A stretch of 64,000 bases of DNA from an uncultured virus (IMG/VR IMGVR_UViG_3300025789_000002) (lineage: Duplodnaviria > Heunggongvirae > Uroviricota > Caudoviricetes), in IMG/VR virus record IMGVR_UViG_3300025789_000002; one strand, written 5' to 3'. How positions within the stretch are numbered: the stretch's first letter is position 1; each line of letters begins with the position of its first letter. Positions 24,833-56,100 of this stretch are shown here, piece by piece. The translations under genes were made by a program, and so were the position numbers. The notes under the pieces were generated by a model that saw nothing but the letters and a program-made list of their open reading frames with translations, was not told where the DNA came from and ran no database searches.

Positions 24833-25150
24833 ATATGTATAGTATTTGCAGCTTTGTAGACATGTTCTGGCGATATGTACATTTTTGTCGACATTTTATA
24901 CACATTGTGCGGCCTATTAGCAGTTTGGTTGACTTATAAATAAGGCTTTAAGTGGGTTACGGACTCATTAATGAGTCATTTCTTTTTCTTATAAAATACC
25001 CCGTTCGGGAATATTTTCCTACATTTGCCTACTTTTTCATCAATTCTTCCCGTTCGGGAAACTTTTTTATACCTATAGGTTGGAATTGCTTTGTTGTTTT
25101 GATACCTATAGGTATCAATTTTATGCCTGTCGATGTCACATGTTTGCACG
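24833..25150. repeat. Cluster of paired short palindromes (operator-like)
   Basis: GACTTATAAATAAGGC/GACTCATTAATGAGTC; CCCGTTCGGGAA x2; ACCTATAGGT x2; TGTAGACA/TGTCGACA. Confidence 0.7.
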
Positions 25151-25215
25151 GGTTTTCTTTTTAAAATCATATAGTTACAGCGTTATTTTTTAGAGGTGGT
25201 TTTCAAATTTTTTAT

Positions 25216-25233
25216 ATACCCCCCGGGGGGTAT
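25216..25233. repeat. Perfect palindrome ATAC6G6TAT
   Basis: ATACCCCCCGGGGGGTAT. Confidence 0.8.
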
Positions 25234-25423
25234 GCACTATAAAGAGGCATGGGGGTACTTATTGCCGATTTTATTTTTGATATATCTACTGTGCAAAACA
25301 CTGTGTATGTATTGCAGTAGGTACCATCTAAGCGAATCGGGTTGGTGGGGGTATGGTGGGGTTGGCTGGCTGGCATGACATTCTGAGCTGGGGCTAAGAT
25401 AGTCTAAATTAGTTTTGGTTTTC

Positions 25424-25465
25424 TTGATCTAGGTCAAGAGTTTATCTCGCATACTCGGTTATATT
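25424..25465 (+). promoter_or_regulatory. Class II FNR/CRP-family-type promoter
   Basis: TTGATCTAGGTCAA (25424-25437) with TATATT at 25460-25465, which puts the site centre at about -41.5. Confidence 0.6.
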
Positions 25466-25507
25466 CAAAGCGTACCAAGTCGGTACATAACTTAGAAAGG
25501 ATTTACC

Positions 25508-26116
25508 ATGTCATACATTACTACAGAATTAACTAAAGCGGGCTTTATCTCTATTGGCTCAGCATGTGCTGACATTGATGGACAACGGGATGAAGCCTTG
25601 CTATCGTTTTATCATGCTGTGCTGGTTGATGGCGATATCAGCTATGACGCTTGGACTGAGGGCTCTACTTGCTGGAAGGTTGGGTATGCTCAGGCTAAGC
25701 GTTGTGCTCCTGAGGATAATAAGGTATCAGTAGCGTGGCACAGTTTTACTAGCGATCTCAAGACTCAATACGATATCGTTAAGCCAGTTAAGCCATCCAA
25801 AGCAGGTCAAGTCAAGGCTGAGCAAAGAGGCAAAGCGGCTGTGGAAATGGAAATGCTCAAGGCTAAGCCAATCGAAGAGTTGGTTGAAGAGGTTGCAATG
25901 CTTACCCAAAACCCTAGTCTTGAGAATATCAAAAAAGCCACAAAAGTACAGAAGGCTGTAGAGGCTAAGCGAAAAGAAGCCATGAAGGATCGCATGGACG
26001 GTATCAGCGAATTACAGAAGGTAGTTATTAGTTTAACCAAAGAATGCCTAGATGAGATGACGCTAGAGCATTGTAGAGCTATCCTCAATGGCGAGGTTGA
26101 TATCTCCATAATGTAG
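25508..26116 (+). CDS. Early hypothetical protein, paralogue of 26971..27570
   Basis: GAAAGGA RBS; IEELVEEVAMLTQNPSLENIKKA aligns with IDELKHEAKNLLSNPTLKNIEQA. Confidence 0.8.
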   Translation: MSYITTELTKAGFISIGSACADIDGQRDEALLSFYHAVLVDGDISYDAWTEGSTCWKVGYAQAKRCAPEDNKVSVAWHSFTSDLKTQYDIVKPVKPSKAGQVKAEQRGKAAVEMEMLKAKPIEELVEEVAMLTQNPSLENIKKATKVQKAVEAKRKEAMKDRMDGISELQKVVISLTKECLDEMTLEHCRAILNGEVDISIM

Positions 26117-26120
26117 TAAG

Positions 26121-26179
26121 AGCTGGGGGCAACCCCAGCTTGTTTTATCCAGCCCAGCTTAGGCTGGGTTTTTTATTTT
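26121..26179 (+). terminator. Tandem hairpins/intrinsic terminator
   Basis: AGCTGGGG-GCAA-CCCCAGCT, then CCCAGC..GCTGGG plus T run. Confidence 0.75.
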
Positions 26180-26258
26180 ATTAGGGAACTGGTTGTAAGC
26201 GACGCATTAGCCATGTTCGCCATGCGAACGCAGTCGGCATCACACGCAAAGCGAACTC

Positions 26259-26289
26259 GGACATTATTAGGTGTTGGCTAAGTTTGTCC
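26259..26289 (-). repeat. 30-bp palindromic element, inverted copy (7-nt spacer)
   Basis: Reverse complement GGACA-AA-CTTAG-CCAACAC-CTAAT-AA-TGTCC. Confidence 0.8.
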
Positions 26290-26295
26290 TCGCAA

Positions 26296-26632
26296 TGCAA
26301 TGTTCCGTTTTATTCGCTTTGTTCTAAGCAATGTTCCTGCTAAGTTATTGATTTATAAGTAATGTTCGCAATGTTCTAATGTTACACTCGAAAATCTACT
26401 TCCAGTTTTCCAAAAATTTCGTTCGCTTGATCCGTCTCGCATAGTGCAAGAAATAGATTTTTTAAGCTCGATATATAAATAAAATAACATTATAACATTA
26501 TAACAATATACTAATAAATGACCTTCTAACCTAATAAGTATAAGGGTTTTGTAATGTTCCAACGAAGCGAACAAATCGGAACAATTAGTCGGTTTTTCGA
26601 ACATTCCTAGTTTGGTATTTCTTAGCGAACAA
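26296..26632. other. Putative replication origin
   Basis: Convergent AATGTTC / GAACA / TAACATTA iterons around an AT-rich core. Confidence 0.55.
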
Positions 26633-26770
26633 AGCATCACCACGCATACCCGCTAAATATCGTGATCTAAACAGAGAATATTCCATACCATAAAACCTCG
26701 CCCAATACGCTAGAGTTCCTTTTACTCCATCAATAGTAATGTAAACAAAATCTGCTTTTTTCTTTTTCAT
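26585..26770 (-). CDS. Small DNA-binding protein
   Basis: ITIDG..GTL..WA..YG...SL...RY..G resembles the HTH tail of HNH homing endonucleases; AAGGAG RBS. Confidence 0.55.
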   Translation of the reverse strand: MKKKKADFVYITIDGVKGTLAYWARFYGMEYSLFRSRYLAGMRGDALFAKKYQTRNVRKTD

Positions 26771-26830
26771 GTGTAAATCTCCTTAAAACCCTATTATAGA
26801 ACAATACCTAAAACATTGTAGGACAAACAC

Positions 26831-26859
26831 TTGACATTGTAATGATTCTCTGTTATACT
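26831..26859 (+). promoter_or_regulatory. Strong sigma70 early promoter
   Basis: TTGACA-17bp-(TG)TATACT. Confidence 0.85.
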
Positions 26860-26901
26860 ACAAGGGTAGTAAAGATTAAAAGGCAGTAAGCAGTAAAAAG
26901 C

Positions 26902-26931
26902 GGACAAACTTAGGTAGTGCTAAGAATGTCC
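26902..26931 (+). repeat. 30-bp palindromic element
   Basis: GGACA-AA-CTTAG-GTAGTG-CTAAG-AA-TGTCC. Confidence 0.9.
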
Positions 26932-26970
26932 AGTAAACCAAACCAAACTTAAGAGGATTTAAAACACACT

Positions 26971-27570
26971 ATGAAAACTACCATTAAAACCCAAGAAATG
27001 CTCTATGCATTTGACGAGCAACAAACTGCATCAATCAAGGCATCTGCCGTAAACTTCTTTGAATCTGAAGAATCTGCCGAGCAAGCCGTTTTGACCTATC
27101 AACGCATCATCGGTTTAAACCCGACTTTTGATCAATACGAAATGGGTCGTTTGTTGTTTATCGAAGCAATCTCTGAAGCAAAGCCCGACATCACCGACAA
27201 TGCATTAAATGTGCGTTGGAATACCTTTAGCAAAAAATTAGGTATTGATAAGCCTAAAAAGACAGAATCGGCAGATGCAGTTCGCAAAGCGAACGAGAGA
27301 GCATTGGCAAAAGAGAAACAACAGGCAGAATTTGCGGGCATGACTATTGACGAGCTAAAGCACGAAGCCAAAAACTTGTTATCTAATCCTACTTTGAAGA
27401 ACATCGAGCAAGCCAAGAAATATACCAAGCAAGCCGAGATGCTCTATAAAGAAGCGAACAAGGAAGAAGCCGAGCAAAAGGCGCAGTTGGTTAAAGACCT
27501 GACCGCATGGGCAAAAGATCAGTCATACCTAGACTTATATACAATCTGCGAGAACATGGGCATAATCTAA
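26971..27570 (+). CDS. Early hypothetical protein, paralogue of 25508..26116
   Basis: GAGGA RBS; monocistronic with its own promoter and terminator. Confidence 0.8.
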   Translation: MKTTIKTQEMLYAFDEQQTASIKASAVNFFESEESAEQAVLTYQRIIGLNPTFDQYEMGRLLFIEAISEAKPDITDNALNVRWNTFSKKLGIDKPKKTESADAVRKANERALAKEKQQAEFAGMTIDELKHEAKNLLSNPTLKNIEQAKKYTKQAEMLYKEANKEEAEQKAQLVKDLTAWAKDQSYLDLYTICENMGII

Positions 27571-27590
27571 ACCAAACCCGCTTCACTCTG

Positions 27591-27614
27591 ACCCCGCTAT
27601 ATGCGGGGTTTTTT
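27591..27614 (+). terminator. Intrinsic terminator
   Basis: ACCCCGC-TATAT-GCGGGGT plus T run. Confidence 0.8.
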
Positions 27615-27743
27615 ATTATGTAGGATTTGTTTAGGTGTGCTATGTCGTTCCTATACAACAGAGAACTGGCGGGACAAGCGTGCGACGCAAAAGGAACGAG
27701 CCACAAAACGCAATCAAATCAACGCCTTAGGAAGGACAACCCC

Positions 27744-27772
27744 TTGACAAAGTAAAGACTTTATGGTATACT
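27744..27772 (+). promoter_or_regulatory. Strong sigma70 early promoter
   Basis: TTGACA-17bp-(TG)TATACT. Confidence 0.85.
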
Positions 27773-27803
27773 AGAAGGGTAAGTAGAAATTCAAACTCAA
27801 TCA

Positions 27804-27833
27804 GGACAAACTTAGCAACACCTAAGAATGTCC
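27804..27833 (+). repeat. 30-bp palindromic element
   Basis: Spacer CAACAC. Confidence 0.9.
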
Positions 27834-27852
27834 ACAGCAAAAGGATATAAAC

Positions 27853-28110
27853 ATGAAGCGACTAGCAAGCCATGAATCACACCGCTATTTCTGCGTAGCT
27901 AATATTGCCAAAGACTGCGACACCTATGTTGATGGCGAGCGTGCAGACATTCTAAACAACCAACACCGACCACTAACTTGCTTAAAGTGTGGCGATGTCA
28001 TTGCCAAAAGCAAGAAGCACATCGTGCAGATACCCTATTCCAAAGGTGCGTATCAATATATCCACAACCCGCAAGACTTATTCTTTACTAACCCAAAGAG
28101 GACAACATGA
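27853..28110 (+). CDS. Small Zn-ribbon early protein
   Basis: C..C and CLKCG; P.SKGAYQYI. Confidence 0.65.
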   Translation: MKRLASHESHRYFCVANIAKDCDTYVDGERADILNNQHRPLTCLKCGDVIAKSKKHIVQIPYSKGAYQYIHNPQDLFFTNPKRTT

Positions 28111-28250
28111 GCAACCCATATATCTATAACCCAACCAAAAAGCTAGTGCCTTGGACACCGAGAACCCAAGAGCAGTATCTCGACTTTGTTAAACGAGTGT
28201 ATGCAATGCACAAGCGACTTGGGTTTGAACCACCGAAGAGGACAACATGA
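28107..28250 (+). CDS. 47-aa early peptide
   Basis: Read by hand (MSNPYIYNPTKK...PKRTT); ATGA overlaps at both ends. Confidence 0.6.
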   Translation: MSNPYIYNPTKKLVPWTPRTQEQYLDFVKRVYAMHKRLGFEPPKRTT

Positions 28251-28474
28251 GCGTAATGATTGAAGCGAACAACAACTGGCGCAAGTTTATAGACCAGCTA
28301 GAAGCGAACAACCCTGATGTGTATAAAAACATATGGCTAAAAGCACCCGCAAGCGACCCAAAAGTAATAAGCGAGGACTACCATGCGTGGCGCAACCTAG
28401 TTCAACAAGCGTTTTTTGAGGGGTATGAAGCGGGTTTTACTGACAGATTATTTAAAGGAGATAGAGATGAGTAA
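28247..28474 (+). CDS. Early hypothetical protein
   Basis: Coupled start; F.EGYEAG motif. Confidence 0.6.
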   Translation: MSVMIEANNNWRKFIDQLEANNPDVYKNIWLKAPASDPKVISEDYHAWRNLVQQAFFEGYEAGFTDRLFKGDRDE

Positions 28475-28679
28475 GACAAACTTAGCAGAACCTAAGAATG
28501 TCCAAGAAAACGACAGAGGACAATGGTTTGACGATGGACTAACTAAAGCATTTAGATATGCTGAGAGTAACAAAGTAGTAAAGATAGACCGCAAAGGGGT
28601 TGCATGTGACGCATATCTTGATGGGTTTTTAGAAGGCATTGCTTACTATATTTTAGAAAGGAGACAGAACGATGAGTGA
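28467..28679 (+). CDS. Early hypothetical protein
   Basis: AAGGAG RBS; start MSKTNLAEPKNVQ. Confidence 0.6.
   Translation: MSKTNLAEPKNVQENDRGQWFDDGLTKAFRYAESNKVVKIDRKGVACDAYLDGFLEGIAYYILERRQNDE
28474..28503 (+). repeat. 30-bp palindromic element (inside CDS)
   Basis: AGACA-AA-CTTAG-CAGAAC-CTAAG-AA-TGTCC. Confidence 0.85.
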
Positions 28680-28845
28680 TGTAAATAGCAGAGCAGACGA
28701 AGCATGGAGAAAAATTAACCACCGCTACGACAAATACAGTAGTGATGAATTCTTTGTGCTTTATGAATTGTTTGTGGAAGCATTTGGGCTTGGCGAAGAA
28801 AGCGTATTAAGTATTTGGGAAAGGGCGGGTGGAAAAGTTGACTGA
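28672..28845 (+). CDS. 57-aa early peptide
   Basis: GAAAGGAG RBS; MSDVNSRADEAWRK..., read by hand. Confidence 0.5.
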   Translation: MSDVNSRADEAWRKINHRYDKYSSDEFFVLYELFVEAFGLGEESVLSIWERAGGKVD

Positions 28846-29044
28846 ATATTACAAAGGGCAACGCATTAGCGAGTTGCTTGAGCACATAGAAGAAATGGAA
28901 GGGCGACTCAAGACTTTGGTGCAAATAGCAACTGAGCACCCCGATGAACCCTTTTCTTTAGCGCAGTATGAAGAAGTAGCACAGGGCTATACATCGCTTG
29001 CCCTAGCAAAAGCGAAGTTTAAAGCATTACAAGGAGAGAAGTGA
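28829..29044 (+). CDS. Early hypothetical protein
   Basis: ORF track; overlaps both neighbours. Confidence 0.55.
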   Translation: MEKLTEYYKGQRISELLEHIEEMEGRLKTLVQIATEHPDEPFSLAQYEEVAQGYTSLALAKAKFKALQGEK

Positions 29045-29262
29045 TGAACATGATGCACGATTTACACCAAGACTTGTCGGAGTTTATTCCCGATGAGCGT
29101 GACCAAGCGACCCTGTTAGAAATCTTTTGGGGTTTGAACGACAAGCATGGCGATGCCGACAGTCGTAAAAAAATTGCTATGCAAATCGTCGACCTACGCA
29201 ATATCTATGGCGACTTGCTTGACGATGCGGTTGAGGTTCTCTACCAGTATAAGAACAAATGA
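29041..29262 (+). CDS. Early hypothetical protein
   Basis: AAGGAG RBS; coupled start. Confidence 0.6.
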   Translation: MMNMMHDLHQDLSEFIPDERDQATLLEIFWGLNDKHGDADSRKKIAMQIVDLRNIYGDLLDDAVEVLYQYKNK

Positions 29263-29398
29263 CACCAAGCGAACGAAGCGAACTACAAACCCTAATTGAC
29301 AACTTATCACTCATTAACATAGAAAGGACACCCGCATCACTCGTAAGACTAATAGCATTGCAAGCAAGAGATGTATTAGAGAAGTTAATAAGAGAATC

Positions 29399-29428
29399 GG
29401 ACAGACTTAGCAAGCCCTAAGAATGTCC
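29399..29428 (+). repeat. 30-bp palindromic element
   Basis: GGACA-GA-CTTAG-CAAGCC-CTAAG-AA-TGTCC. Confidence 0.85.
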
Positions 29429-29452
29429 ACAAACCAACGAAAGGAAGTAAAT

Positions 29453-29731
29453 ATGTATTGGAATAATAGAGTAGTAAGAACCCTATCTCGTTACGAGCAT
29501 GAGGGACAAGCAGTAGCAGAGCCTTACTTTGAAATCAGCGAGGTTTTCTACAACGACAAGGGTCAGCCATGTGGCTACACCTCGACAAGTATTGGCGGGG
29601 AAACACCTGAGGAAATGCGTGAGGTATACGAGAGAATGGCGGAAGCATTTGAGCACCCTGTTCTCGATGCTGAGACTGACTTTAATAATAAGTTTGAAGA
29701 AGATGAGGAGGATGGACATGAATTCGCTTGA
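29453..29731 (+). CDS. Acidic early protein
   Basis: GAAAGGA RBS; MYWNNRVV...I.EVFY...G.P motif. Confidence 0.7.
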   Translation: MYWNNRVVRTLSRYEHEGQAVAEPYFEISEVFYNDKGQPCGYTSTSIGGETPEEMREVYERMAEAFEHPVLDAETDFNNKFEEDEEDGHEFA

Positions 29732-29927
29732 GAAAAACTTAAGACCTGTCCCCCGCACATTGGATGAGGCAACACGCAACGCAACATATGCATCATCTAT
29801 TCAGGCATTTAAGAGCGACACACAAGAAGCGTGGGAGTTCTTGCTCGGTGCAGTTTATGGGTTCATCATGGTCGGTTGGGCATTTATTGCAATCGGCTTA
29901 GTTCTTTACTATTTCTTTGGAGGTTAA
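29718..29927 (+). CDS. Small membrane protein
   Basis: PRTL.EA motif plus C-terminal TM segment. Confidence 0.6.
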   Translation: MNSLEKNLRPVPRTLDEATRNATYASSIQAFKSDTQEAWEFLLGAVYGFIMVGWAFIAIGLVLYYFFGG

Positions 29928-29928
29928 T

Positions 29929-30885
29929 ATGGGTTGGGGTTATGGAAATTGCGGTAGATTAAAACCACTATCTACTTATCAGCAAGCACAGGAACACTTT
30001 AACTGGGTGACTCCTATTCGTGGTCGTAGCAAAGAAACTAAACCATTGGGTTTAAACCGACGCTATACGCACTATCTTATCAAAGAGAATATGCGAGTGG
30101 TTGACGATGGTTGTCTAGGTGCGTGGCAGAAGACTTACTCTGCTAATCTGTATAACACGGATATGGTTGAGTGGTATCCCAATGGCGATATTGCGATAGG
30201 AACTGGTGGTTGGCAGTCGCCGACGAGTCACGCATTTATAAATTACACCATCCAAGATTTGGGGTTCATCGAATCGTGGAGTGGCAAGTGGTATTTCACT
30301 AATAAGGAACAGAAAAGGTTTTTACTCAAGGGTAAGACTAAAGATAGGCTCGTGTTAGTTAATACTGGTCGCCAAGTCCAAACCTATGCTAGAGGAATGT
30401 GTGATGTATATGAGCCAGCTCATCCAATACAAGAGCATAAATACTCAGCGAACAGAAAAGAAATGAATCATCTAAAAAAATACTACGCACCATTTGTTGA
30501 GTATGGCAAGAATATGCTACTCATCGACAATAAGTTTGACTACAACGAGGAAGAGAATAAGAGAGTCTTTAACAAGTGGGCAAGTCCACACATGATTTCG
30601 TATGGGTATCACAGAGAGGAAGCCAAGCGAAATAGGAATTTCTTTATGACTAAGGTTGGTGAATTTATTGATGAGGGCAGTATGAACTTAGAACTAGCCT
30701 ATAACTTAGCATTACTTTGTGCGAAGTCTATATCGGGCTGGGGACAGCGTTGTATGCCCCAAGAGTTTGAGGCGCATTTCATCGAGTTAATAAGGAATCA
30801 CCATAATAAAGAAGTATTTAGAGCAACTCCTATGCCAATAGGTGAAGCATTTACTGACCGCAACGCAAAGTATTTTTTAGTTTAA
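29929..30885 (+). CDS. Early hypothetical protein
   Basis: GGAGG RBS; 318-aa ORF. Confidence 0.75.
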   Translation: MGWGYGNCGRLKPLSTYQQAQEHFNWVTPIRGRSKETKPLGLNRRYTHYLIKENMRVVDDGCLGAWQKTYSANLYNTDMVEWYPNGDIAIGTGGWQSPTSHAFINYTIQDLGFIESWSGKWYFTNKEQKRFLLKGKTKDRLVLVNTGRQVQTYARGMCDVYEPAHPIQEHKYSANRKEMNHLKKYYAPFVEYGKNMLLIDNKFDYNEEENKRVFNKWASPHMISYGYHREEAKRNRNFFMTKVGEFIDEGSMNLELAYNLALLCAKSISGWGQRCMPQEFEAHFIELIRNHHNKEVFRATPMPIGEAFTDRNAKYFLV

Positions 30886-30901
30886 TAGTAGTTAACCCAA
30901 C

Positions 30902-30931
30902 GGACAAACTTAGCAAGACCTAAGAATGTCC
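30902..30931 (+). repeat. 30-bp palindromic element
   Basis: Spacer CAAGAC; upstream of the AAA gene RBS. Confidence 0.9.
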
Positions 30932-30953
30932 ACAACAACGGAAGGAAGTAACC

Positions 30954-32048
30954 ATGTCTGAAGTATTTTTGAATAAAGTAGCAACTCTAGTAGAAGCAGA
31001 GAACCTTATCCTCTCTATTGGTGCTAACGGAACAGTTCACTTAGTTGGTGAGCCAGGTGTAGGCAAGACCTCAATGTTTAAGAACATCGTGCGTCGCACA
31101 GGCTTCAAAGGTATCTATATTGATGCACCGAACATCGAACTAGGCGAATTAGGTATTCCAATCCCTGACCATGCTACTAAGACAACGCGTATCTATCCCA
31201 ACGAGCAATGGGGATTTCATGTTAATGAGCCAAAGGTAATCTTCATCGACGAGTTCACTAAAGCACACAACGCAGTTAAGAATATGCTTCATCCTATGCT
31301 TAACGAACCACGAATGATTATGGGTATCCCATTGCACGAGAAAGATATTGTCGTAACGGCAGGTAATTACTCAGGCGACGGGGTAGGCGATAACATGATG
31401 GCTCACTCTCGTAATCGTGTGACTGTCGTGCAAGTTAAGAAACCTCATGCGGGTTTGAATCCTGATGGCTCTATTGATCCTGATTCTTGGGGTGCATGGG
31501 CGGTGGATAATGACATTGCTCCTGAGGTTCTAGCATGGGTTAAGGAAACTCCTCATTGCTTGGCTTCATATCTCGATGGCGCACAGGCGGGGAATAAGTA
31601 TATCTTTAACCCTAAGGAAGCACAGAAGTCTTTTGTTTCTCCTCGCTCTCTTGCTAGAGCATCAGCAATTCTTAAGGCACGCTTAGGAGTAACTACCAAC
31701 GCAACTATTTGTGCGCTAGAGGGAACGATTGGTGCTCCTGCGGCTCGGGATTTGATGTCTTATGTGGAAGTCGCCGACTCGCTACCAACTTGGGCTGATA
31801 TTCTTAAGAGTCCACAGACTGCGATTGTGCCTAACTCACCCGCCGCATTGTGCTTGCTAGCTTTCTCTGCGGTGCAAAAGGTTGATAGGGAATCTATTAG
31901 TAAGTTCTTTGAATACCTCAAGCGAACTCCAAAGGAATTGCAATCGGTGTTCTGCTTAACAGGCATGAAGAACGACGACAAGAAAAAATTGTTCTTAACA
32001 AGCCAATCATTCACGACATGGATGCGTGAGAACCAATACCTATTCTAA
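30954..32048 (+). CDS. MoxR/dynein-related AAA+ ATPase
   Basis: GEPGVGKT Walker A, IFIDE Walker B, AGN sensor 1, SPRS sensor 2. Confidence 0.9.
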   Translation: MSEVFLNKVATLVEAENLILSIGANGTVHLVGEPGVGKTSMFKNIVRRTGFKGIYIDAPNIELGELGIPIPDHATKTTRIYPNEQWGFHVNEPKVIFIDEFTKAHNAVKNMLHPMLNEPRMIMGIPLHEKDIVVTAGNYSGDGVGDNMMAHSRNRVTVVQVKKPHAGLNPDGSIDPDSWGAWAVDNDIAPEVLAWVKETPHCLASYLDGAQAGNKYIFNPKEAQKSFVSPRSLARASAILKARLGVTTNATICALEGTIGAPAARDLMSYVEVADSLPTWADILKSPQTAIVPNSPAALCLLAFSAVQKVDRESISKFFEYLKRTPKELQSVFCLTGMKNDDKKKLFLTSQSFTTWMRENQYLF

Positions 32049-32167
32049 GGAGATAGCATGGAAGATTTACCGAAAGACATAAGGGAGTTGGTGTTGTATG
32101 CATTGCAAGATGTAATGAACCGACTACATAGAATTGAAGAAATGCTTTGTGATAACGAGGAAGAAGA

Positions 32168-32374
32168 ATGAAAGAAATTGTAGATGCAATGCGTGAGCAT
32201 AGTCGTATCAAAGCCGAAGCGAAAAGGAATAACCTTGAACTGATGAAGTTAGCGGTGCAGACAGGGTTGCCTCAAGAAGAGGCTTTGAAAATAAATCTGT
32301 CTATGTATTTAGATGGTTACTTAATGGCATTAGGGCATATGCCCGCACACAGAAGAGGAGTTGTAAATGATTGA
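32168..32374 (+). CDS. Hypothetical protein
   Basis: ORF track. Confidence 0.5.
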   Translation: MKEIVDAMREHSRIKAEAKRNNLELMKLAVQTGLPQEEALKINLSMYLDGYLMALGHMPAHRRGVVND

Positions 32375-32564
32375 GATTACCTACGCAGATTTGTTCCTAT
32401 TCGTTGTTATTGTGTTGGTGTCAACTCTCTGGTTGAAGGCAAAGGCAGAGATGGTCATGCAAAAACGAGCCATGATGCAAGGGTTGTATGCCTTGTATCA
32501 TGGTGAGGCTGAAGTAATCGTTGATGAAGAAGAAGGTTCAATCCGTTTACAGGAGAAAGTATGA
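32367..32564 (+). CDS. Small membrane protein
   Basis: N-terminal TM segment; AGGAG RBS. Confidence 0.55.
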   Translation: MIEITYADLFLFVVIVLVSTLWLKAKAEMVMQKRAMMQGLYALYHGEAEVIVDEEEGSIRLQEKV

Positions 32565-33751
32565 GTAAGTTAACAGCAGAACAGCGCATCGAACGCACCC
32601 ATGTTCAGCTAATGAAGCACCCCAATTTTTGTTTGTTCTCGGGGTTGTTCATGGTGGGCAAGGTGTCGGTAGATGATGAGTGTCCTAGTGCTAAGACCAA
32701 TGGGGTTGATGTAACCTATGGTCGTGGGTTCGTGGATAGTTTGAGCGACAAGGCTTTGGCTTTCGTTATATTGCACGAGAATATGCACAAGGCTTATCGT
32801 CACTTGGTGGTATGGACAAACTTGCACAAGAAGAACGCACAGTTAGCTAATGCGGCTTGTGACTATGTTATCAATCTACAAATCCGTGACTATGACCCTG
32901 ATGGTCGTGATACTGAGATGCCTGTCGACGCCGACGGCAATGTGATGGGACTTATCGACGAGAAGTATCGTGGTATGGATGCGGCTCAAGTCTTTAGATT
33001 GCTAGAGGAAGAGCATGGCGGTGGCGGTGGTGGCGGTGGTCAAGGTATAGATGACCATGACTGGGAAGGCGCACAGGAAGCAACACCTGAGGAACAAGAA
33101 GCGATTACTAACGAGATCGAGCGAGCATTGCGACAAGGCGGTATCTTGGCGGGCAAGATGGGTGGTAAGGTTTCTAAAGAAATGCAAGACCTCTTAACTC
33201 CTAAGGTTGACTGGCGAGAAGCCTTGCGTGATTTCGTTAAGACTTCTACTCAGGGTAAAGACCAAACGACTTGGCGTCGGTTGCATAAACGCTATATCGG
33301 TTGCGACATCATCATGCCATCATCTTATGATGAGAAGGTTGGCGGTATCTTAATTGGTATCGACACCTCAGGTTCTATTGGTGGGGAGGAACTGGCGGGG
33401 TTCTTGGGTGAGGTCAAATCCATTTGTGATGAAGTTGCGCCTGAGAAAATTGACTTACTTTATTGGGACACCCATGTGGCATCTCACGAAGTATGGCAAG
33501 GCAACGACCTAGCTGGTCTTACAGAATCAACTAAACCAGCGGGCGGTGGCGGAACAGAGCCAGCTTGTGTGCCTAAGTATATGAAGAAAGAAGCATTAGA
33601 CCCTGAGTGTGTCATCATGCTAACTGATGGATACATCGGAACGCAGAACCCAAACGATTGGGAGATAGGCAAGCCTATTCTATGGTGCATCAAAGGTAAC
33701 GAGCGCTTTAATAGTTCTCAAGTATCAGGAAAGGTGGTTCATGTGGAATGA
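32561..33751 (+). CDS. Metallopeptidase-like plus VWA domain protein (DUF2201 type)
   Basis: HENMH (HExxH), N.A.DY.IN, DTSGS MIDAS, GGGGT, LTDGY. Confidence 0.9.
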   Translation: MSKLTAEQRIERTHVQLMKHPNFCLFSGLFMVGKVSVDDECPSAKTNGVDVTYGRGFVDSLSDKALAFVILHENMHKAYRHLVVWTNLHKKNAQLANAACDYVINLQIRDYDPDGRDTEMPVDADGNVMGLIDEKYRGMDAAQVFRLLEEEHGGGGGGGGQGIDDHDWEGAQEATPEEQEAITNEIERALRQGGILAGKMGGKVSKEMQDLLTPKVDWREALRDFVKTSTQGKDQTTWRRLHKRYIGCDIIMPSSYDEKVGGILIGIDTSGSIGGEELAGFLGEVKSICDEVAPEKIDLLYWDTHVASHEVWQGNDLAGLTESTKPAGGGGTEPACVPKYMKKEALDPECVIMLTDGYIGTQNPNDWEIGKPILWCIKGNERFNSSQVSGKVVHVE

Positions 33752-34028
33752 TAAAAAACCGTGGTGGCAGAAACCTAAAGGCGACCCTAAAAAGGTAGTC
33801 GATAGGCAGTATGCCAAGAATTGGTGCGTGTTTGTGCAAAAGCTTGGTGTATATGACCCTAACAGTTGGGGTATGAAAGTAATGATTCATTACACAGCTT
33901 GCGCCAAACTCAATGTGCCTAGATTTCTGCATCAAACACAGGAAGAAGTAGTGGTAGTAGATAACTTAACTAAGCAAGAGGCAAACGAAGTAGCCAAAGG
34001 CTTAAACTTTTTAGATGGACAAACTTAG
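33741..34028 (+). CDS. Hypothetical protein
   Basis: ORF track; stop codon falls within the palindromic element. Confidence 0.55.
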   Translation: MWNDKKPWWQKPKGDPKKVVDRQYAKNWCVFVQKLGVYDPNSWGMKVMIHYTACAKLNVPRFLHQTQEEVVVVDNLTKQEANEVAKGLNFLDGQT

Positions 34029-34046
34029 GTAGAACTAAGAATGTCC
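34017..34046 (+). repeat. 30-bp palindromic element
   Basis: Spacer GTAGAA. Confidence 0.9.
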
Positions 34047-34064
34047 TTAACGATAGGAATGATT

Positions 34065-34967
34065 ATGAACCAAGAAAATAGTATTTCCATTGCATCTTCT
34101 GCAATGTTGGTAGAACTTAGCATTAGTGGTTGGAGTGCTAGGAAGTTAGACAAGCGTGCCTCGGCTCAAGTAGATATCACCAACTCTACCAAGACCAAAG
34201 CGGGTAACTATAACAAGAACCTATTAGCTGGCACAGGGTTCTTGGATACCATAACGAAGTATGCGGCACAGGCTCGTGCATGGCATCTAAGTCAGACATT
34301 GCCTTGGTCGGATAACGGCTTGCGTCTATTACCTATGGGTAGGTTTCTAGAGTATAAGGAGCAACTCAACACTCTGGAGGCAAACTACATGGCGCTAGTG
34401 GATAAGTTCGTCGTAGCGTATCCGAATCTGGTAAGTGCCGCCGCATTTCAGTTAGGTGATTTGTTTGACCGAAGCGAATATCCCGAGGTCGAGAAGATCC
34501 CAGCGAAATTCAAATTCTCGGTTAACTACTTGCCTGTCCCGATGGCTGGAGATTTCAGAGTAGACATTGGTGAGGAAGCGAAAGCCGAACTTGTTAAGTC
34601 ATGTGAAGATGCTTACAACGAGCGACTAGGTAATGCTATGAAAGATGCATGGGATAGATTACATGGTTGCTTGACCCGTATGTCTGACCGCTTGGCTGAT
34701 GAAGTAGTGGAGAAAGAAGTAGATGGACAGATTGTTCAAGTGTCTCAACGAAAACGAATCCACGACACAGTAATAGAGCATGGTGTCGAGTTAGTAGAAC
34801 TCCTGAAACACTTTAACCTCACAGGCGACGCTAGCATGGAGATGGCACGCAAGGACCTCGAGAGAGCAATCGGTGGTCACAATGCCGACGACCTCAAAGA
34901 CAGCGAGGCTATTCGCATGGGTGTTAAGAGCAAGGTCGATGCAATTCTCAGTAAGTTTTCTTTTTAA
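34065..34967 (+). CDS. Conserved early protein (DUF3150-like) associated with AAA/VWA
   Basis: SAMLV.L.IS.W.A.K.D...TLPW...G.RLLP...LG.LF...EYP. Confidence 0.7.
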   Translation: MNQENSISIASSAMLVELSISGWSARKLDKRASAQVDITNSTKTKAGNYNKNLLAGTGFLDTITKYAAQARAWHLSQTLPWSDNGLRLLPMGRFLEYKEQLNTLEANYMALVDKFVVAYPNLVSAAAFQLGDLFDRSEYPEVEKIPAKFKFSVNYLPVPMAGDFRVDIGEEAKAELVKSCEDAYNERLGNAMKDAWDRLHGCLTRMSDRLADEVVEKEVDGQIVQVSQRKRIHDTVIEHGVELVELLKHFNLTGDASMEMARKDLERAIGGHNADDLKDSEAIRMGVKSKVDAILSKFSF

Positions 34968-34976
34968 GGAGGAAGT

Positions 34977-35177
34977 ATGCGAAGTTATAAAGCACGCAAT
35001 AGGACTAAGTTAATAGCGGAGGCGAACAAGAACTCGCTAACCGCATTGCTTAAACAAGACATTCCTATCGAAGAGAAATATGCAATGGTGGAGGAGCGCA
35101 ACCCATTCCTTCATGCATTATTTATTAAGAAAGTTAAAGTTGTTATTAAAGGAGAAGAAGATGATTGTGGTAAATAG
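34977..35177 (+). CDS. Hypothetical protein
   Basis: AAGGAGG RBS. Confidence 0.55.
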   Translation: MRSYKARNRTKLIAEANKNSLTALLKQDIPIEEKYAMVEERNPFLHALFIKKVKVVIKGEEDDCGK

Positions 35178-36030
35178 AGACAAATTGAAGGCTGAGTATC
35201 GTTCCGACATTAAATACCTTGACGGATTGGAAAGTTTCTTAACCGATGTAGCATTAGCCAAGCCATTGCTAACTTATGATGTCGACGATATGTGTATCTC
35301 TAATGAGCGAACTAAGGATGCTAACGGCGACTTAAAGATAGAGAAGCAACTATATCGCATTAGAGTTTATGGTGCGGGGGAATACCTCGGGGATATTGGC
35401 ATCATCGACAGATGGCGTGGTGGTAGCAAAGAAAGGGCTTACCTAGTCGAGTGTTTTCGCATCAGCAAAGGGCGTGGCCGGCAGAATGGAACTACAACGA
35501 TTGACCCGAAGACTGCGTTGCGTGAGGCTAAGAAAGCATTTAACCCAAGACAAGACGACGAGTTAAAGACTCTTATCAAGAGCATGGTTAAGAATCAGGT
35601 TAACACTATGCTGGATCAGGCTCGTAGTTATTTGCGTTGGAACTTTGAGCAAGATGCTGAACTATGCCACTATGCCGTCGTAGCTTTTAACGCTAGGAAA
35701 AATGGTGACTTGTTTGCCAAGATGCCTGTACATCCAGTAACTGTTAAAGATACTAAAGAACACGATAAGCGTTGTGAAAAGTTTATAAATAGCCAAGAAC
35801 TTTTTGATGCTATAAACGCTAATCGAGGGTATGGCATTAGAACTAATATGGATAACACTCTAGTTGTATATAGCTACGCTACCGACACCGTTGGTAAGGT
35901 TAATTCGTTTGACGATTTGCCTGAGGCTATTCAGTCTAAGTTTGCTATGTTTAAGGTATTAGAGGCGAATGATCCTGTGGGTAGCATTGGGGTTAAACTA
36001 GCTGATAACTTTTATTATGTAATGCAATGA
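35161..36030 (+). CDS. Hypothetical protein
   Basis: AAGGAG RBS before MIVVNRD. Confidence 0.7.
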   Translation: MIVVNRDKLKAEYRSDIKYLDGLESFLTDVALAKPLLTYDVDDMCISNERTKDANGDLKIEKQLYRIRVYGAGEYLGDIGIIDRWRGGSKERAYLVECFRISKGRGRQNGTTTIDPKTALREAKKAFNPRQDDELKTLIKSMVKNQVNTMLDQARSYLRWNFEQDAELCHYAVVAFNARKNGDLFAKMPVHPVTVKDTKEHDKRCEKFINSQELFDAINANRGYGIRTNMDNTLVVYSYATDTVGKVNSFDDLPEAIQSKFAMFKVLEANDPVGSIGVKLADNFYYVMQ

Positions 36031-36044
36031 GGTATACTATGGTC

Positions 36045-36210
36045 AGGTTGACTTCATAGTTAATCCTTTCGTGAGGGTGGTTGGAATGTATGGCAGATGC
36101 AAACCAACTGGGATTACCTGATTAACATACTAGGATGTAATCTGCCTTACCTAGCGAATATGTATCCATATTCATCCTCCAAAACTAAGCCACCTTCGGG
36201 TGGCTTTTTT
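36045..36210 (+). ncRNA. Candidate structured sRNA
   Basis: TATACT at 36033; four stems with two possible pseudoknots; ends at an intrinsic terminator. Confidence 0.5.
36187..36210 (+). terminator. Intrinsic terminator
   Basis: AAGCCACC-TTCG-GGTGGCTT plus T run. Confidence 0.85.
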
Positions 36211-36213
36211 ATT

Positions 36214-36243
36214 GGACAAACTTAGGTAGTGCTAAGAATGTCC
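36214..36243 (+). repeat. 30-bp palindromic element
   Basis: Identical to the copy at 26902. Confidence 0.9.
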
Positions 36244-36268
36244 TTAGGGAAACCCCCTATAAATTAAT

Positions 36269-36297
36269 TTGCTATGTTATTTTTGGTGTGGTATACT
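36269..36297 (+). promoter_or_regulatory. Sigma70 promoter of the replication operon
   Basis: TTGCTA-17bp-(TG)TATACT. Confidence 0.7.
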
Positions 36298-36334
36298 ATG
36301 TCAATAATAATAGTTTCACCGAAAGATAAAACCA

Positions 36335-50087: not shown

Positions 50088-50116
50088 GGTCCCGCCGTAA
50101 AAAGCGGGACTTTTTT
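50088..50116. terminator. Terminator at convergence of the two arms
   Basis: GTCCCGC/GCGGGAC stem plus T run. Confidence 0.8.
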
Positions 50117-53100
50117 ATTCTTCAGAATACCCAAGCATCGGTGCTAGCTTGCCAATAGCCTTCTTATTAATGTTTACGCCACCTGTCATATTGGCTAAAG
50201 CACGCTGCATGTAACGACGTTTAATTGAAGCCTGTAATCCTTTTGCGTCAATCATATACTCAGGATTTGCTGTATCAAACTTAATAATCTTTTGCATTAC
50301 ACGCTGTTGCATATCAGAATCACCGCTATCAAATGCCATAAAGAAAGCGTTTTCTAAGTCAGTCTTGCGTTGAGTAATTTCCATATCTTGGCTCTTCATT
50401 TCCATTGCAGCTTTTTGTTTTTGAGCTGTATCTTCTGGAGAGAAACCAAGCATTTGTTTTAAAGCGTCTCGTGCTGGAACGTTATCGTCTAGTGTGTCGC
50501 CCTTCATAGTTAGAGCTTTACCCTCTACTAAATACCTAGTACCGACAAAGATATTCTTAATACCGGCGGGTAACATAGCTTCAGCAGCACGTTCATAGTG
50601 CCCGTCATTTAGACGTTTAAGCGCCTCGGCGTATCCTAGTGCAGCACCAGCTACAGGACCCATTAAGTTAGTCATAACATTTTGTAAATATTGCACTTCA
50701 TCTTGGCTTTTCTTAACGCTTGGGAACCACATATCGCTCATGTTAATACTCATACGGTCTGCAAAGTTTGCTCCAGTAGCCTGGGATAATACGCCACGAG
50801 ATATAGAGTCGCCGACAAACCCACCAAAATGCCTATTACACCAATTCTTAAACCAATTATCTGCATCAAATGGCTCGTCAGAATCACCAAAAGCAGCGTG
50901 GAAAGCTGATGCAATAGCAGAGAATAGGAAGTAGAAAGGCATACCAGATAGGCCAGCAGTAATCATAGTCATACCCATCATGCCCCAGAAAGATTCAATT
51001 GCTTCTTTCTTAATATCTTTTAGCTCAGCCTCTTTAGCTTTCATTAATTCAGCTTTGCGTGGGTCTTTTTCTACTTGCTTCGCATAGGCTTCTAACTCAG
51101 TTTTCATGCCCCCGCCTAAGGAGTTATAGAATGTACGTGCCATTAGCACAGTCATTTGCTGTGGGTACATCTTAAACTGAGACACAATACTTACTAAGTT
51201 ACCACGGAAGTAGCGGGGCTTATTAGCTGTGTTGTAGTTAAACATAGTCTTTTGAACTAGGTCACGTGCATCCTGAGTAGCTTTCTCAAATGCTTTTGCA
51301 GGGCTAAGAGTCTGTATGTGCTTAGCATAGGCTAGCTCAAACGTAGCCATGTATGTAGTTTCACGGTTGTATTTCTCAGCTGCATGGAATGGTAAGCTGG
51401 CATAGTACATGAACTTTTGGAAGCGCCCAGTATAGTCTGCTGATGGAGTATCACCAACGTGTGCGCTCTCATGACTAAGGGTTGTATCAATAGCACCAAG
51501 CAACACACCTTTTTCATATGCATCGGCATAAGTCATTGCTACTTTGTTGGTCTGTCCGGTAGTCTCATCTACTTTATCTATTAGAATCTTTTTGCCGTTC
51601 TTGTCTAGCAATGGCATCTCGCTCATCTTAGAACGTGCTAGGGATAGGAATTCGTATTTACCAGTCTTATCATTAACAAAACCAGTTCCCCCTAAAAGCT
51701 TATTGTATTTTGCAAGCGCAGCCAAAACAGGCTTAGTGCCATACTTAGCTCGGGCAAATGGAATATAGATTCCAGGGATTGCCATCATGTTCACAACAGC
51801 GGAAGCGGGCGAAGTTAAGAAATGTAAAAAGCCAAATTGTGTAATACCACGCACTATAGCGCTTTGCTTTGGCGGCTCAAGTACTGCAGTCTTTAAGTTT
51901 AGCTCTAATTCACGCACTAACGCACGATTTAATGCTGCTTCTTTACCATAAGGCATATCTCGTAAACGAATGCGTGCGGCTTCAACTGCGTTAAATAACT
52001 GTGGCATATGTTCAAAGCGGGCCCGTTGATACGCAATACGGTATCTAGATTCTGCAAAAGCACGAAGCATATCCTCGCTCGCACCTTGAATGTTGTCACG
52101 ATGTAGGAACATTTTGCGAATACTTTGGTTAGGTGCAATCTCTAGCACGTATTGATCCATGCTATCTTTCATAGCTTCACGAAGCGAATTAAGTTCGTTA
52201 CCCACTGCAGTAGGGTCGGCAGCCACATCTTCTGTAGCCATATCAATACGTTCTTTTAGCCTATTAAGCTGAGCAATGTCAGATAAGCTAGATTTAGCAA
52301 GTTCTGTAAAACCCTCGCCAGTACGAAGTAAAGTATTAATATCCTCGTCTTTATATCCTTGTTTACGTTTATCTGCTTTTACTTGTTCTATACCAGCATT
52401 TCGTGCTGCAGCAGACTCGAACTGCATAAAGATTTTATCTTTACCTTTTCCAAACTGGAGCCAGTATTCTCCAAAACGTTTTAATGGGAAATAAGGACTA
52501 ATAATTCCTTCTTGGATAGCTTTACGCTGCTCTAATGCAAGCCGCTTAATTTCTTTAGGGTCGGTGTTTTTAGCCTGCTCCCTTTCTACTAAACGTTTTT
52601 CTTGTATCTCTAAATACTCATCCATACGACGCTCGTAAAATGCACGGACATCTCTATAGATTTTCATTGCGATAGCGCCATCTTTACCTGATACTAACTT
52701 ATTCCATGCTTCTTGCGTTTTAGGGAAGTTAGGCAAATCTTTAGCGTTATACCCACGGCTTGTTGGGTCTGGATCTATTTTGTTAATAGTAGCTTGTAGC
52801 ATCATATGTGCTAATTGCTGAGATTTTTCTGGATTAGATTTAAGTAGCTCAGCCCATGCTCTAATAGGTTTGTCACCTTCTGCCATAATGCGATTACGAG
52901 TAGCAATCATGGCGTCTATTTCATGCACATAAAGCTTAAACTGTGGTAATTCCTCGCCTGCTAAGTCTGTAAGTTGGTCAAGGGTCAATGCGCCGAGTAA
53001 ATACTGACGGTAATGGTCGTTCACATTAGTAAAGAAGCTCTTTACGTTCGCTTTATTAACGTCTTTCCAATTTAGGCGGCCTTTAATTAAACGGCTCCAG

Positions 53101-56100
53101 TATCCAGAATTTTCTCCAGGGTTTAAGACAAAGTTTTCCTCGTGTACTCCACCTTTAGTTATTTTTGGCAGTTCATCTGATGTCTCGTTGGAGAATATAG
53201 TAGAGTTTGTTGGGGTCGATGTGCTGCCTTTATTAGCAGAGAATATAACGTCGGCGTTAGCCATAGTATGGAATAGCACATTATCTGTGCCGAAAATCTG
53301 TCCAACTAACTGAATGAATTTAGACCACATAGATTGGTCAGAACGCATAGTTGTTTTTAATTTGCGTAATTCTTTTTGGAATTCTGGATTACTAAATGCT
53401 TCTGCTATAAACTCATGGATATTAGTAAATCCATACTGACCTTTATTAATTTTTGCCTTGGCATTCTGGTATAATATTTGGAGGTTACCGACTGCTCTGC
53501 GTTGTTTTTCATCTAATAATTCTGGATGGTCAATAGCCCAATGCGTAGCCGCATGAGAAATTTCATGTATAACAGTATGATTAGTATTCCCGCCTAAATT
53601 AGGGTTTATATTAATAGCATCTTGTATATCAAAATAAGAACCTGCTGCTCTTGTAAGAGTTTTATTAACATCGCTATACCTTTTAGCTAGGTCTGCTAAA
53701 TCCTGAGCTATAGGGTTTAGGTCTACTTTTACTAGTTTGCCTTTTTCTGCAACTGCGCCACCAGCACGTATAAAATTAAAATAATACGCCAACATTCTTA
53801 TAGCTTCTGGATTATAGGTATCGAATTTAATCTGTACTGGCTCAAAATATTTTTTGTATGCGTCTGGGTAGTTCGCCTCAATATAGAGTAAAAATCTTTC
53901 CCTCTGGCCTTTAACAGTATCTAAATAAGCTTTAACCAATTCATTTTGCTTATTAGAATATATATTAGTAGTTAACCCTAGTTCAGATAGACGTTTAGCG
54001 AACGCTGCTAGAAATTTGTTACCCTTAGTTTTGTAGAAGTTAAGCACACCCTTAAGGTTGTTATCTTTGATTGCTTGTTCTACTTCTGGATGCAAAGGTT
54101 TACGCAACGGGTCATCAGCAGATAGCTCGTTTTCTTTAGGGCTAGAGGTTACTTGGGCTTTTTGTTTTTGTTGTCTAAGTACGTGGTTATACACGCTTTC
54201 GGCAGTTATTTCGCCTTGGCGCCTATCATTGTTTGCCAGCTCTGGGTATTGTTTATTAAAAGCGTTAATAAAAGCAGCTCTTGCTTTACCAGACTTTACA
54301 TTGCGGCTTTGGTTTTCTTGCCAAATTGGGTTTTGTGCTACATATAATTGTTCGCTTCTATCATATGCACGCTCGTCAGACTTTTCTAAGCGTTCAGTTT
54401 CATGCCCTACCGCAGTATTTAAAAGGGTTTGTAAGTGTTCTGGCATTGCGGCAGCAATATCACTTAACCGACTATCTTGTGCAGGTGCATTTAATATCGT
54501 AGGTAACTCTGATTTTATTTCTGGTGGGTTTAGGTTATTTAATTCTCTATCAGATGCTATTGATTTAACTGTTTTTACTGGGTTTCCATTTTCGTCAAAA
54601 CCTTCAGGGTGTCCTTCTACATCAATTTCAATCTCGTACATATTCGTAAATTCAGAACCAGGACCTTCATCAAGCACTTTAGTTACTCGGGCTTTTTGTC
54701 CGGGGTATTGGTTTTGATTTACAATTGCGCCTGGCTTAAAGTAAGTCCACGGGCCAGTAGATGTTTGATATGTCTCTCTATCATTTTGTTCTTGATTAGC
54801 TGGAGTAGTTTGCGCCGAGGTTATTTGCTGCTCTAGGTTCTTTTTAAAATCTAAAGTGTCTACATGTTGCTGTAGCATTGCAACTTCTTCAGGGGTTTGT
54901 GCTTCTCTTGTAGTTTGTTGTGCTTCTACAGGAGCAATAGCAGTCTTAATAGCCTCAATGGTATTAGCCATCTTAGCGCCTTTTTTAACTTCAAGGCCAA
55001 GGTCTCTTGCAATACTATTAACTGTTCTAGCTGTTGGTATTAGTGTTTTGTCATCTATAGAAGCTAAGTAGTTTGTTGCCCGTGCTTTTACTTCAGGGTC
55101 TAATGCACCACGCTCTGTTTCTTCTCCTGCTGTAGTAACGCCAGCAGCTCGTTGATCTCCACCCAAGCTTCCAGTGGTAGATGTTGCAGTTCCAGTGGCG
55201 GGCTCGTTACTTCCTTCTTGCTCAGATACTTGAAGGCCAGGTTCAGCTGTTCCGGTGTCAGTTCCAATATCTGCATATTCTTCCCCTTTATTTTCTTCCG
55301 CCGCTGCAGGTTCTTCTGCCATAACTTTGAAGTGGTTATCGACAATTGTATCTAATTGGTCTTTAGTTGGCTTCTCGCCTTTAGCTTCTAAGTCCTGTTT
55401 ATATATGTCTCTAACTTCGGCACGTTGCTGCTTCTCGTCTAAGTGACCTTTAAGGGATTGAACACCTTTATTAACACTAGCTCCAGCGCCCATCATAATA
55501 CCGCCTTGGACTACTGTAGCAGCTAATGTATCTGCAGCACCTTCAAAAAACTCTTGTAACCCAGCTTCTGGGTTCATGCCATAGCCTTTATCTACTGCAA
55601 ACTGTCCAGCATAGGTAAGCTCTTCTCCAGGTACTTCTCTTGCCAGCGCTTTAGCAAAGTATCCCGCAAGCTCTTTAGTAGGTACGCCTTTAGCAGAAGC
55701 TTTCAGTGCTTTAATCTCTGCACCTAAACCAAACTTTTCACCGACAACTTCTAATGTTCCGTATAAGCCTGAGCGAATCGTACTGTCTTTTAAATCTAAA
55801 CCTTCTCGGCGGCTCTCATCATAAGTCTGACCAAACGATTGGACAAACATTCCTGTTAACGCAGTACCACCAGCAATAGCTTCAGCAGCGCCAGCCGTAG
55901 CAAGAGCAGCACCACCAATTACAGGAGCAGCGGCAGCGGCACCGATACCACCAATAATAAGAGGTACTTGTTGAATAATAGAACTTACAGCGCCTTCTAC
56001 AATTTTAGCTGCGTGACTTTCTGGACTACCTAAAGTTTTTGTAACCGCATCAAGATGGTCAAGATTCTTTTGGTTATCAGTATTATCTAAGCCAAGAATA

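Follow-up and report, generated by a model that had tools for sequence, protein, structure and literature searches.

Several kinds of short dispersed repeats have been described in phages. In Cluster A mycobacteriophages such as L5 and TipsytheTRex, which are temperate, stoperators are asymmetric 13-mers that are oriented with transcription and bound by a monomer (PMC9283540, PMC6550527), and they are proposed to halt elongation (PMC9283540). The repressor, ~180-200 amino acids (aa) long, contacts DNA through two parts, and the site motif diverges with repressor sequence while also tracking whole-genome distance (PMC9283540, PMC6550527). MrpR (YopR) of SPbeta is a 320-aa monomer with a tyrosine-recombinase fold that recognizes a 15-bp motif and maintains lysogeny (PMC10516654). 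The 17-bp palindromes of Cluster O and the ESAS inverted repeats of Cluster K are dyads near non-structural genes with no function assigned (PMC4351075, PMC3203893), and the PeSL cassettes of T4-type phages are units of a promoter and a terminator stem-loop (PMC2839356). Here we analyse a 64,000-nucleotide stretch (the window) of an uncultured freshwater phage (IMG/VR record IMGVR_UViG_3300025789_000002), whose early region holds all nine copies of a 30-base near-palindrome, and suggest that a phage-encoded protein family, gA/gB, reads these sites.

The repeat array is a genuine feature of this DNA. No match to the seven plus-strand copies arose in 100 shuffled sequences, and the flexible scan that added the minus-strand copies at 26259 and 25376 returned nothing at five or fewer mismatches in 10 shuffles. 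The complete phage record to which the window belongs is 68,695 bp long and has direct terminal repeats; a genome-wide motif scan found no tenth site in it, so that the original prediction, made from the window alone, was right to place no copies elsewhere. The gene content (terminase, portal, capsid, PolA, SNF2, DUF927 primase, MoxR-like AAA with DUF2201, and a giant LPD39 protein) suggests a podovirus-like phage. The sequencing runs that carry it are freshwater or pond metagenomes, with no RNA run among the matches listed, and cultured relatives are remote (AAA below 30% identity, primase 31% at best).

Loci fetched by their AAA gene carry an array in 51 of 53 cases, the two exceptions being outliers at 34% identity. 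In a more distant clade one was obtained in 13 of 16 loci; automatic seeding left L159, L160 and L166 without an array, and these three were excluded from the statistics, although by eye L166 has a site-like sequence ahead of AAA. Arrays reach 11 sites per locus in relatives. A common layout of 5-2-5 arms around a 5-7 bp spacer recurs across lineages with a sequence particular to each: AC in the outer 5 bp is nearly invariant, the 2-bp linker is variable, and the inner 5 bp reads CTTAG, CTGAC, GTGTC, GTTAC, GCGAC, TCGAC, TCAAG, ATAAG, ACCAT or others. With the site matrix of the window, full arrays are recovered in only 3 of the 34 representatives (selected under 95% AAA identity), and one or two stray matches in two more. 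Site positions conserved in relatives lie after strong promoters, before AAA, before the gene at 34065 and after the terminator, and in the 12 contigs that cover both regions the replication/late stretch holds no site past the terminal one.

Co-variation of the sites with gA/gB

The candidate site-binding proteins are encoded by the first early genes, gA (25508..26116, plus strand; 202 aa, with its co-varying helix at residues ~70-85) and gB (26971..27570, plus strand; 199 aa). The original prediction had called gA FNR-type; it has no Pfam or PHROG match and is instead a paralog of gB (28% over 156 aa, E 7e-11). Of the 36 loci that span TerS to AAA, 34 have one or two gA/gB copies by an iterated profile, and the two loci without gA/gB also lack the array. 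A word-indexed search returns 227 relatives, and the family comprises 524 clusters at 50% identity, with no consistent Pfam, PHROG or PDB match and a weak PHROG match in 1 of 135 representatives. No match to gB was obtained by tblastn in cultured phages, and the scanned stretches of RHph_TM27A, Rollin and CRP-7, which are parts of those genomes, contain neither a family member nor a repeated palindrome.

Site sequence follows gA/gB sequence. Although gA/gB contribute 393 of the 2822 alignment columns compared, they supply 14 of the 14 columns that best predict the inner bases and 14 of 14 for the outer bases; with distant pairs only, the figures are 13 of 14 and 14 of 14. Mantel comparisons over the 34 representatives correlate site distance with gA/gB distance (rho 0.63, p 0.005, the permutation floor), and eight other genes give -0.25 to -0.09. 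Within the main clade, after removal of the distant clade and with a single fixed copy, gA/gB reach 0.60-0.67 and the other genes at most 0.175. The distant clade itself (L158-L173, AAA 55-64% identical) encodes its gA/gB pair on the opposite strand, facing the terminase, and despite this keeps both the array and the helix rules described below.

The signal for the inner 5 bp resolves to a single helix. Once the remainder of the protein and AAA are controlled, the helix still correlates with these bases at 0.62, compared with -0.06 for the remainder of the protein, and a sliding-window scan is highest over gB residues 76-87. Signal for the outer bases comes from outside the helix and is strongest at residues 19-42 and 101-121. 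When the helix is left out of tree building, gA-type and gB-type copies separate into clades with support of 98 and 99, and the helix residues switch with the site in both types. In CTTAG phages, for example, V occupies W-2 in both paralogs and the R at W+2 is lost. A ranking of parallel changes in 13 genomes places 6 of its top 12 columns (of 186) in the helix. Residue-base rules were set on the first 48 proteins and then applied to 27 later ones, where they mostly held: K/R at W-2 with GA gives 14/0/0/34 and later 17/0/5/5, and R at W+2 with terminal C gives 34/1/0/13 and later 23/0/4/0. Judged from these comparisons of sequence, gA/gB are quite likely to bind the array sites. From the sliding-window peak, the residue-base rules, the parallel changes and the structural model together, we infer that gB helix 76-90 (codons 27196..27240, plus strand) recognizes the inner 5 bp of a half-site, with the outer bases read elsewhere in the protein, possibly by the basic helix 101-120.

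AlphaFold returns a confident all-helical chain for gB (predicted local distance difference test score, pLDDT, 88.5; predicted template modelling score, pTM, 0.44), with helices at 16-47, 53-70, 76-90 and 101-120 and a separate helical part at the C terminus; modelled alone, the first 100 residues have a pTM of 0.82. The homodimer scores 0.73 and the best of three controls 0.00, and the homodimer runs agree in at least 68% of contacts at a pLDDT of at least 76; among known cases, 20 of 30 solved pairs and 1 of 23 single chains attain the mark for this score. gB is thus predicted to dimerize through its N-terminal helices. Since the modelled interface lies mainly at residues 4-71, helix 76-90 would stand beside the dimer core, as expected of a reader of inner bases. 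A tyrosine-recombinase core-binding or Myb-like fold for gB was not supported: the best VIA hit (Z 6.6, root-mean-square deviation 3.6, 82 residues aligned) is an unrelated helical domain, and Foldseek gives E 0.79 or worse. Likeness to the recombinase fold is limited to an Atlas TM of 0.48, under its bar, and a 0.1% probability for the XerD N-terminus, and the fold searches list no such match. Sequence and fold searches likewise gave no match to a helix-turn-helix (HTH) plus Stoperator domain in gA/gB. An obligate gA-gB heterodimer was considered as the cause of site asymmetry and set aside: linker positions pair at 0.16 in the 18 genomes with two copies and at 0.57 in the 18 with one copy, only a hint, and 7 of the latter 18 are strongly asymmetric too.

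The original prediction had listed operators for a phage or host protein among its hypotheses and had named the products of 46697 and 26585 as proteins to assay. The operator reading gains support from our results, with gA/gB and neither of those proteins as the likely binder. The Cro-like HTH protein at 46697 has a nearly invariant recognition helix and a rho of -0.016 in 12 contigs, and the open reading frame (ORF) at 26585, an HNH-like fragment, is patchy, occurring in 4 of the 49 other loci compared in full. This ORF (26585-26770, minus strand, 61 aa) resembles part of the HNH endonuclease family phrog_3377 (E 5e-5) and is possibly a remnant. As readers of the site, SSB, primase, SNF2, g45239, g49837 and g56490 show no significant link to it, and the exonuclease a weak one (0.26, p 0.03, n=11).

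Form, placement and likely role of the sites

Across 283 sites from 38 non-redundant genomes, only five are perfect dyads. Arm pairing lies at or below the expectation for independent half-sites (0.32 against 0.48 at position 6), and the half-sites vary independently, a pattern that fits two half-sites on duplex DNA. The p-values of such comparisons are optimistic, because the sites are not mutually independent. The second hypothesis of the original prediction, RNA hairpins, would have the elements read as such by gA/gB or a host nuclease, for which lambda N-boxB antitermination and the RNase III sites of T7 are precedents. Copies do occupy leaders and gene junctions, gA/gB are the first genes with terminators behind them, linker position 6 has A-A 125 times against U-U 35 times, and, when folded with the surrounding transcript, all single copies tested form a hairpin, as is expected of any dyad. 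Against RNA hairpins, core mismatches show no wobble preference (G-T 67, A-C 69; in a second, overlapping set of 218 unique arm pairs, 58 and 77), and folds of the real sites are less stable than those obtained after re-dealing the arms (-11.06 against -11.71 kcal/mol, 0/60). Orientation flips at homologous positions, the loop is variable, and the last copy lies past the terminator. Given pairing at or below chance and no wobble bias, we consider an RNA role unlikely.

The flips also bear on the polarity that the original prediction had drawn from a conserved AA/AA linker mismatch. In phages with the same element, 19 of 32 sites have AA/AA and 8 of 32 have TT/TT on the transcribed strand. Both forms occur at homologous copies, so the asymmetry is kept and the direction is not; a conserved polarity is not sustained.

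A 12-6-12 layout had further suggested site-specific recombination sites bounding exchangeable early cassettes, and the flipping of copies is compatible with this. Related loci were compared in 25 pairs, and 29 of the 126 breakpoints between them are no more than 30 nt from a site, compared with a background of ~8% that is understated because the nearer of two genomes was taken and that should be read knowing that sites also sit at gene edges. Only 8 of the 126 fall inside a site, and near-site breakpoints mostly leave the site intact at the gene edge. Among seven alignments inspected, one shows a cassette of ~184 bp lost from site to site (L050 against L219). None of nine joints in four DNA runs lies inside a site, in contigs that drop rare forms. 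The complete genome lacks tyrosine recombinases (PF00589, PF02899), serine recombinases and the Y1 HUH enzyme (PF01797), which extends to the whole phage the earlier remark that the window encodes no recombinase; a host enzyme might still act. Core sites of the loxP/dif type have a cognate recombinase and 6-8 bp spacers that match between partner sites. The array has neither: spacers are 5 bp at 185 of the 283 sites and in most lineages, and differ within a genome, where 63 of 1016 pairs are identical. REP/RAYT repeats come with a linked Y1 HUH nuclease, and here too the array differs. Recombination as the dedicated function is thus highly improbable, and we regard shuffling at the sites as occasional and incidental, as has been reported for PeSLs (PMC2839356).

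Placement relative to promoters points to transcription. In the 34 representatives, a site is centred at +30 to +70 for 44 of 86 strong promoter-like matches and at -30 to +10 for none; the remaining sites stand at gene junctions and directly behind the final terminator. We propose that dimers of the phage's own gA/gB would occupy the repeats as double-stranded DNA operators, the helix 76-90 of each subunit reading the inner 5 bp of one half-site. Made first, gA/gB would accumulate and fill the sites 30-70 bp past strong host-type promoters and at junctions, where bound dimers would slow RNA polymerase as roadblocks; the outcome would be negative feedback on gA/gB and a shut-off of early genes that is specific to the phage type. 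Overall, we favour by some way the reading of the sites as operators of the gA/gB family that damp early transcription as roadblocks; if binding is granted, a repressing role is likely, as judged from site position only. With no integrase, resolvase or ParA found, a role in lysogeny is unsupported; gA/gB more probably control the lytic programme or co-infecting kin.

A host transcription factor might bind the sites instead, with lineage differences mirroring host differences, and the promoters are indeed of host type. Yet the exact pattern occurs in the GTDB genome collection twice, each time singly, where by our own arithmetic ~1.6 occurrences are expected, and the co-variation maps onto one helix of a phage protein. 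We regard a host factor as extremely improbable.

Several results weigh against gA/gB roadblocks. The absence of sites at -30 to +10 leaves no classical promoter occlusion, so that repression depends on a roadblock. The helix was initially chosen by eye; each single residue-base rule amounts to 4-5 independent pairs, none of them significant; the terminal-C rule was tested one-sided, because the later set had no site without terminal C; and the parallel-change ranking covers three site types only. In the dimer model, residues 82, 85 and 86 contact the partner subunit, the fold searches matched no known DNA-binding fold (the viral fold library being outside the search), and the avoidance of linker symmetry by the sites is left unaccounted for. 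Within the main clade, g29929, VWA and TerS reach nominal significance (0.14-0.18, p 0.005-0.04), and a giant LPD39 protein of virion/ejection type (50115..56486, minus strand) tracks both the site (rho 0.63 at n=11, 0.67 at n=17) and gA/gB (0.52). These last correlations make AAA a weak control for lineage and mean that part of the whole-protein gA/gB signal is ancestry.

The giant protein was rejected as a direct reader, since no residual signal is left once gA/gB are controlled. Its correlation with the site given gA/gB is -0.09 in the 15 genomes with both, and over all 22 genomes it is 0.004; helix and inner 5 bp still correlate at 0.55 given the giant protein (n=15). Its C-terminal 690 aa are 75% identical to the same-type phage, 55-60% within the GGACA group and ~37-43% to others. 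The protein splits the main clade into the gA/gB groups, and the nearby primase, SSB, HTH and g56490 have no link to site type. We read it as a co-travelling marker or partner; it may be a partner of gA/gB or a marker of host range. Of the earlier proposal of polar sites for an ejected protein, what stands is that such a protein co-travels with the gA/gB type (0.67); the polarity fails, and the site signal is gone given gA/gB.

These observations bear on whether gA/gB bind the duplex for DNA handling, by looping or compacting the early region or by docking a partner such as the giant ejected protein at DNA entry. The sites never overlap a promoter core and some lie behind terminators, the giant protein co-travels with the gA/gB type as its neighbours do not, and the separate C-terminal helical part of the gB model could bridge sites. 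The lack of a residual link between giant protein and site, and the fixed +30 to +70 placement past promoters, which indicates transcription, make DNA handling doubtful. We give about the same modest credence to a bolder form of the gA/gB proposal, a new fold of sequence-specific DNA-binding dimer with a helix-to-base code, in which each type is a self/non-self identity module, maybe coupled to DNA entry. If true, such a module would silence or exclude same-type co-infecting phages and diversify to escape others among integrase-less freshwater phages.

The array and its surroundings in the window

The original prediction gave the motif as GGACA-AA-CTTAG-N6-CTAAG-AA-TGTCC, and the coordinates and spacers of its seven plus-strand copies (GTAGTG twice, GTAGAA, CAACAC, CAGAAC, CAAGCC, CAAGAC) all agree with ours, except that the copy at 28474 begins AGACA and that at 29399 has GA as its left linker. 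Its degenerate inverted copy exists (25376..25405, minus strand, upstream of gA), with mismatches at 5 of 24 arm positions, and L025, L029 and L070 have a degenerate site at the equivalent position. The other inverted copy (26259..26289, minus strand), between gA and promoter P1, also exists, with 31 bp, a 7-bp spacer and one mismatch in place of the supposed 30 bp and 6-nt spacer. Correct, too, were the contexts assigned to the copies: after promoters, before ribosome-binding sites, after the terminator and inside the ORF at 28467.

A consensus scan places P1, a sigma70-type promoter (TTGACA-17-TATACT), at 26831..26859 and a second, P2, at 27744..27772, both on the plus strand; most relatives have a promoter-like match at the position of P1. 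The plus-strand site at 26902..26931 is centred at ~+51 from P1 and lies 39 nt ahead of the gB start, and that at 27804..27833 is centred at ~+40 from P2, with its orientation flipped in L025 and L070. Next on the same strand, the site at 28474..28503 falls within the first codons of ORF 28467-28679, whose homologue in L026 has a site of different sequence at its start, and that at 29399..29428 overlaps the stop codon of ORF 29259-29420. The copy at 30902..30931 stands 22 nt ahead of the MoxR-like AAA ATPase gene, a position kept across relatives; that at 34017..34046 provides the TAG stop of ORF 33741-34028 and precedes the gene at 34065; and the last (36214..36243) abuts the terminator T tract, 25 nt before the next promoter-like -35 box. 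Terminator-like hairpins, from the consensus scan only, follow gA (26120..26170) and gB (27590..27610) and close the early operon (36187..36206), all on the plus strand. Rfam has no match at the sites.

Some further features of the region are recorded here. Around the promoter after the last site (36260-36315), TATACT-N2-TGTCAA is conserved and also provides a -35 box for leftward transcription; the distance from this leftward promoter-like element to the last site is ~+44 in L057, L058 and L072. AATGTT/AACATT words cluster at 26290-26610 (kilobase 26 has 10 of the 58 in the genome); the stretch has an exact match to the IHF-type box at 26341 (minus strand) and is a candidate origin or packaging region. 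Over 24834-25267, two of four runs show 2-3x higher contig depth, and contigs are interrupted near 24977-25059, reflecting either a motif common to relatives or a genome end. Two widespread, fast-evolving early genes, 29929-30885 and 35161-36030, are unannotated and mostly 30-45% identical where AAA is 75-89% identical.

Comparison with described repeat systems

No description of the array or of the gA/gB family was found in the literature covered, which left out most subscription papers and all supplements. With gA/gB, the array gains a testable partner from a large unannotated family. Specificity swaps can be tested directly on more than 12 natural protein-site pairs in which a recognition helix is predicted, and such pairs could supply orthogonal repressor-operator pairs. 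They also raise the question of why integrase-less phages would diversify a repressor-like specificity.

The array resembles the stoperators of Cluster A in having many sites in short intergenic gaps (nine here, up to 11 per locus) and a motif that diverges with a phage-encoded protein of similar size, ~200 aa. In contrast to stoperators, its sites are 29-31 bp dyads in either orientation and confined to the early region, gB is a predicted dimer, and no integrase or ParA was found; unlike the Cluster A motif with its whole-genome tracking, the array motif barely tracks the AAA, VWA and terminase genes. Like the array, SPBRE was a repeated intergenic element found first by sequence analysis, and was later shown to be bound by the phage master repressor (PMC10516654). 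gA/gB differ from MrpR in their size of ~200 aa and have only a weak, sub-threshold likeness to the recombinase fold. The array shares with the Cluster O palindromes the lack of a fixed orientation and with the Cluster K ESAS a group-specific consensus, by subcluster in K; in the portions available, the reports on these repeats name no binding protein, and their sequences and layouts are unrelated to the array (PMC4351075, PMC3203893). Like PeSLs, the array consists of repeats among small early genes with cassettes that can be lost by recombination between copies (PMC2839356), whereas its sites are neither promoter nor terminator and few breakpoints fall inside them.

By these analogies the array appears to work most like the stoperator and SPBRE/MrpR systems, with dispersed sites, a candidate phage-made regulator and a type-specific sequence. 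Given its dyad, unoriented sites, it is not a member of the stoperator system. What is new here is the naming of gA/gB, a family without database annotation, as the candidate regulator, together with the helix that would read the sites.

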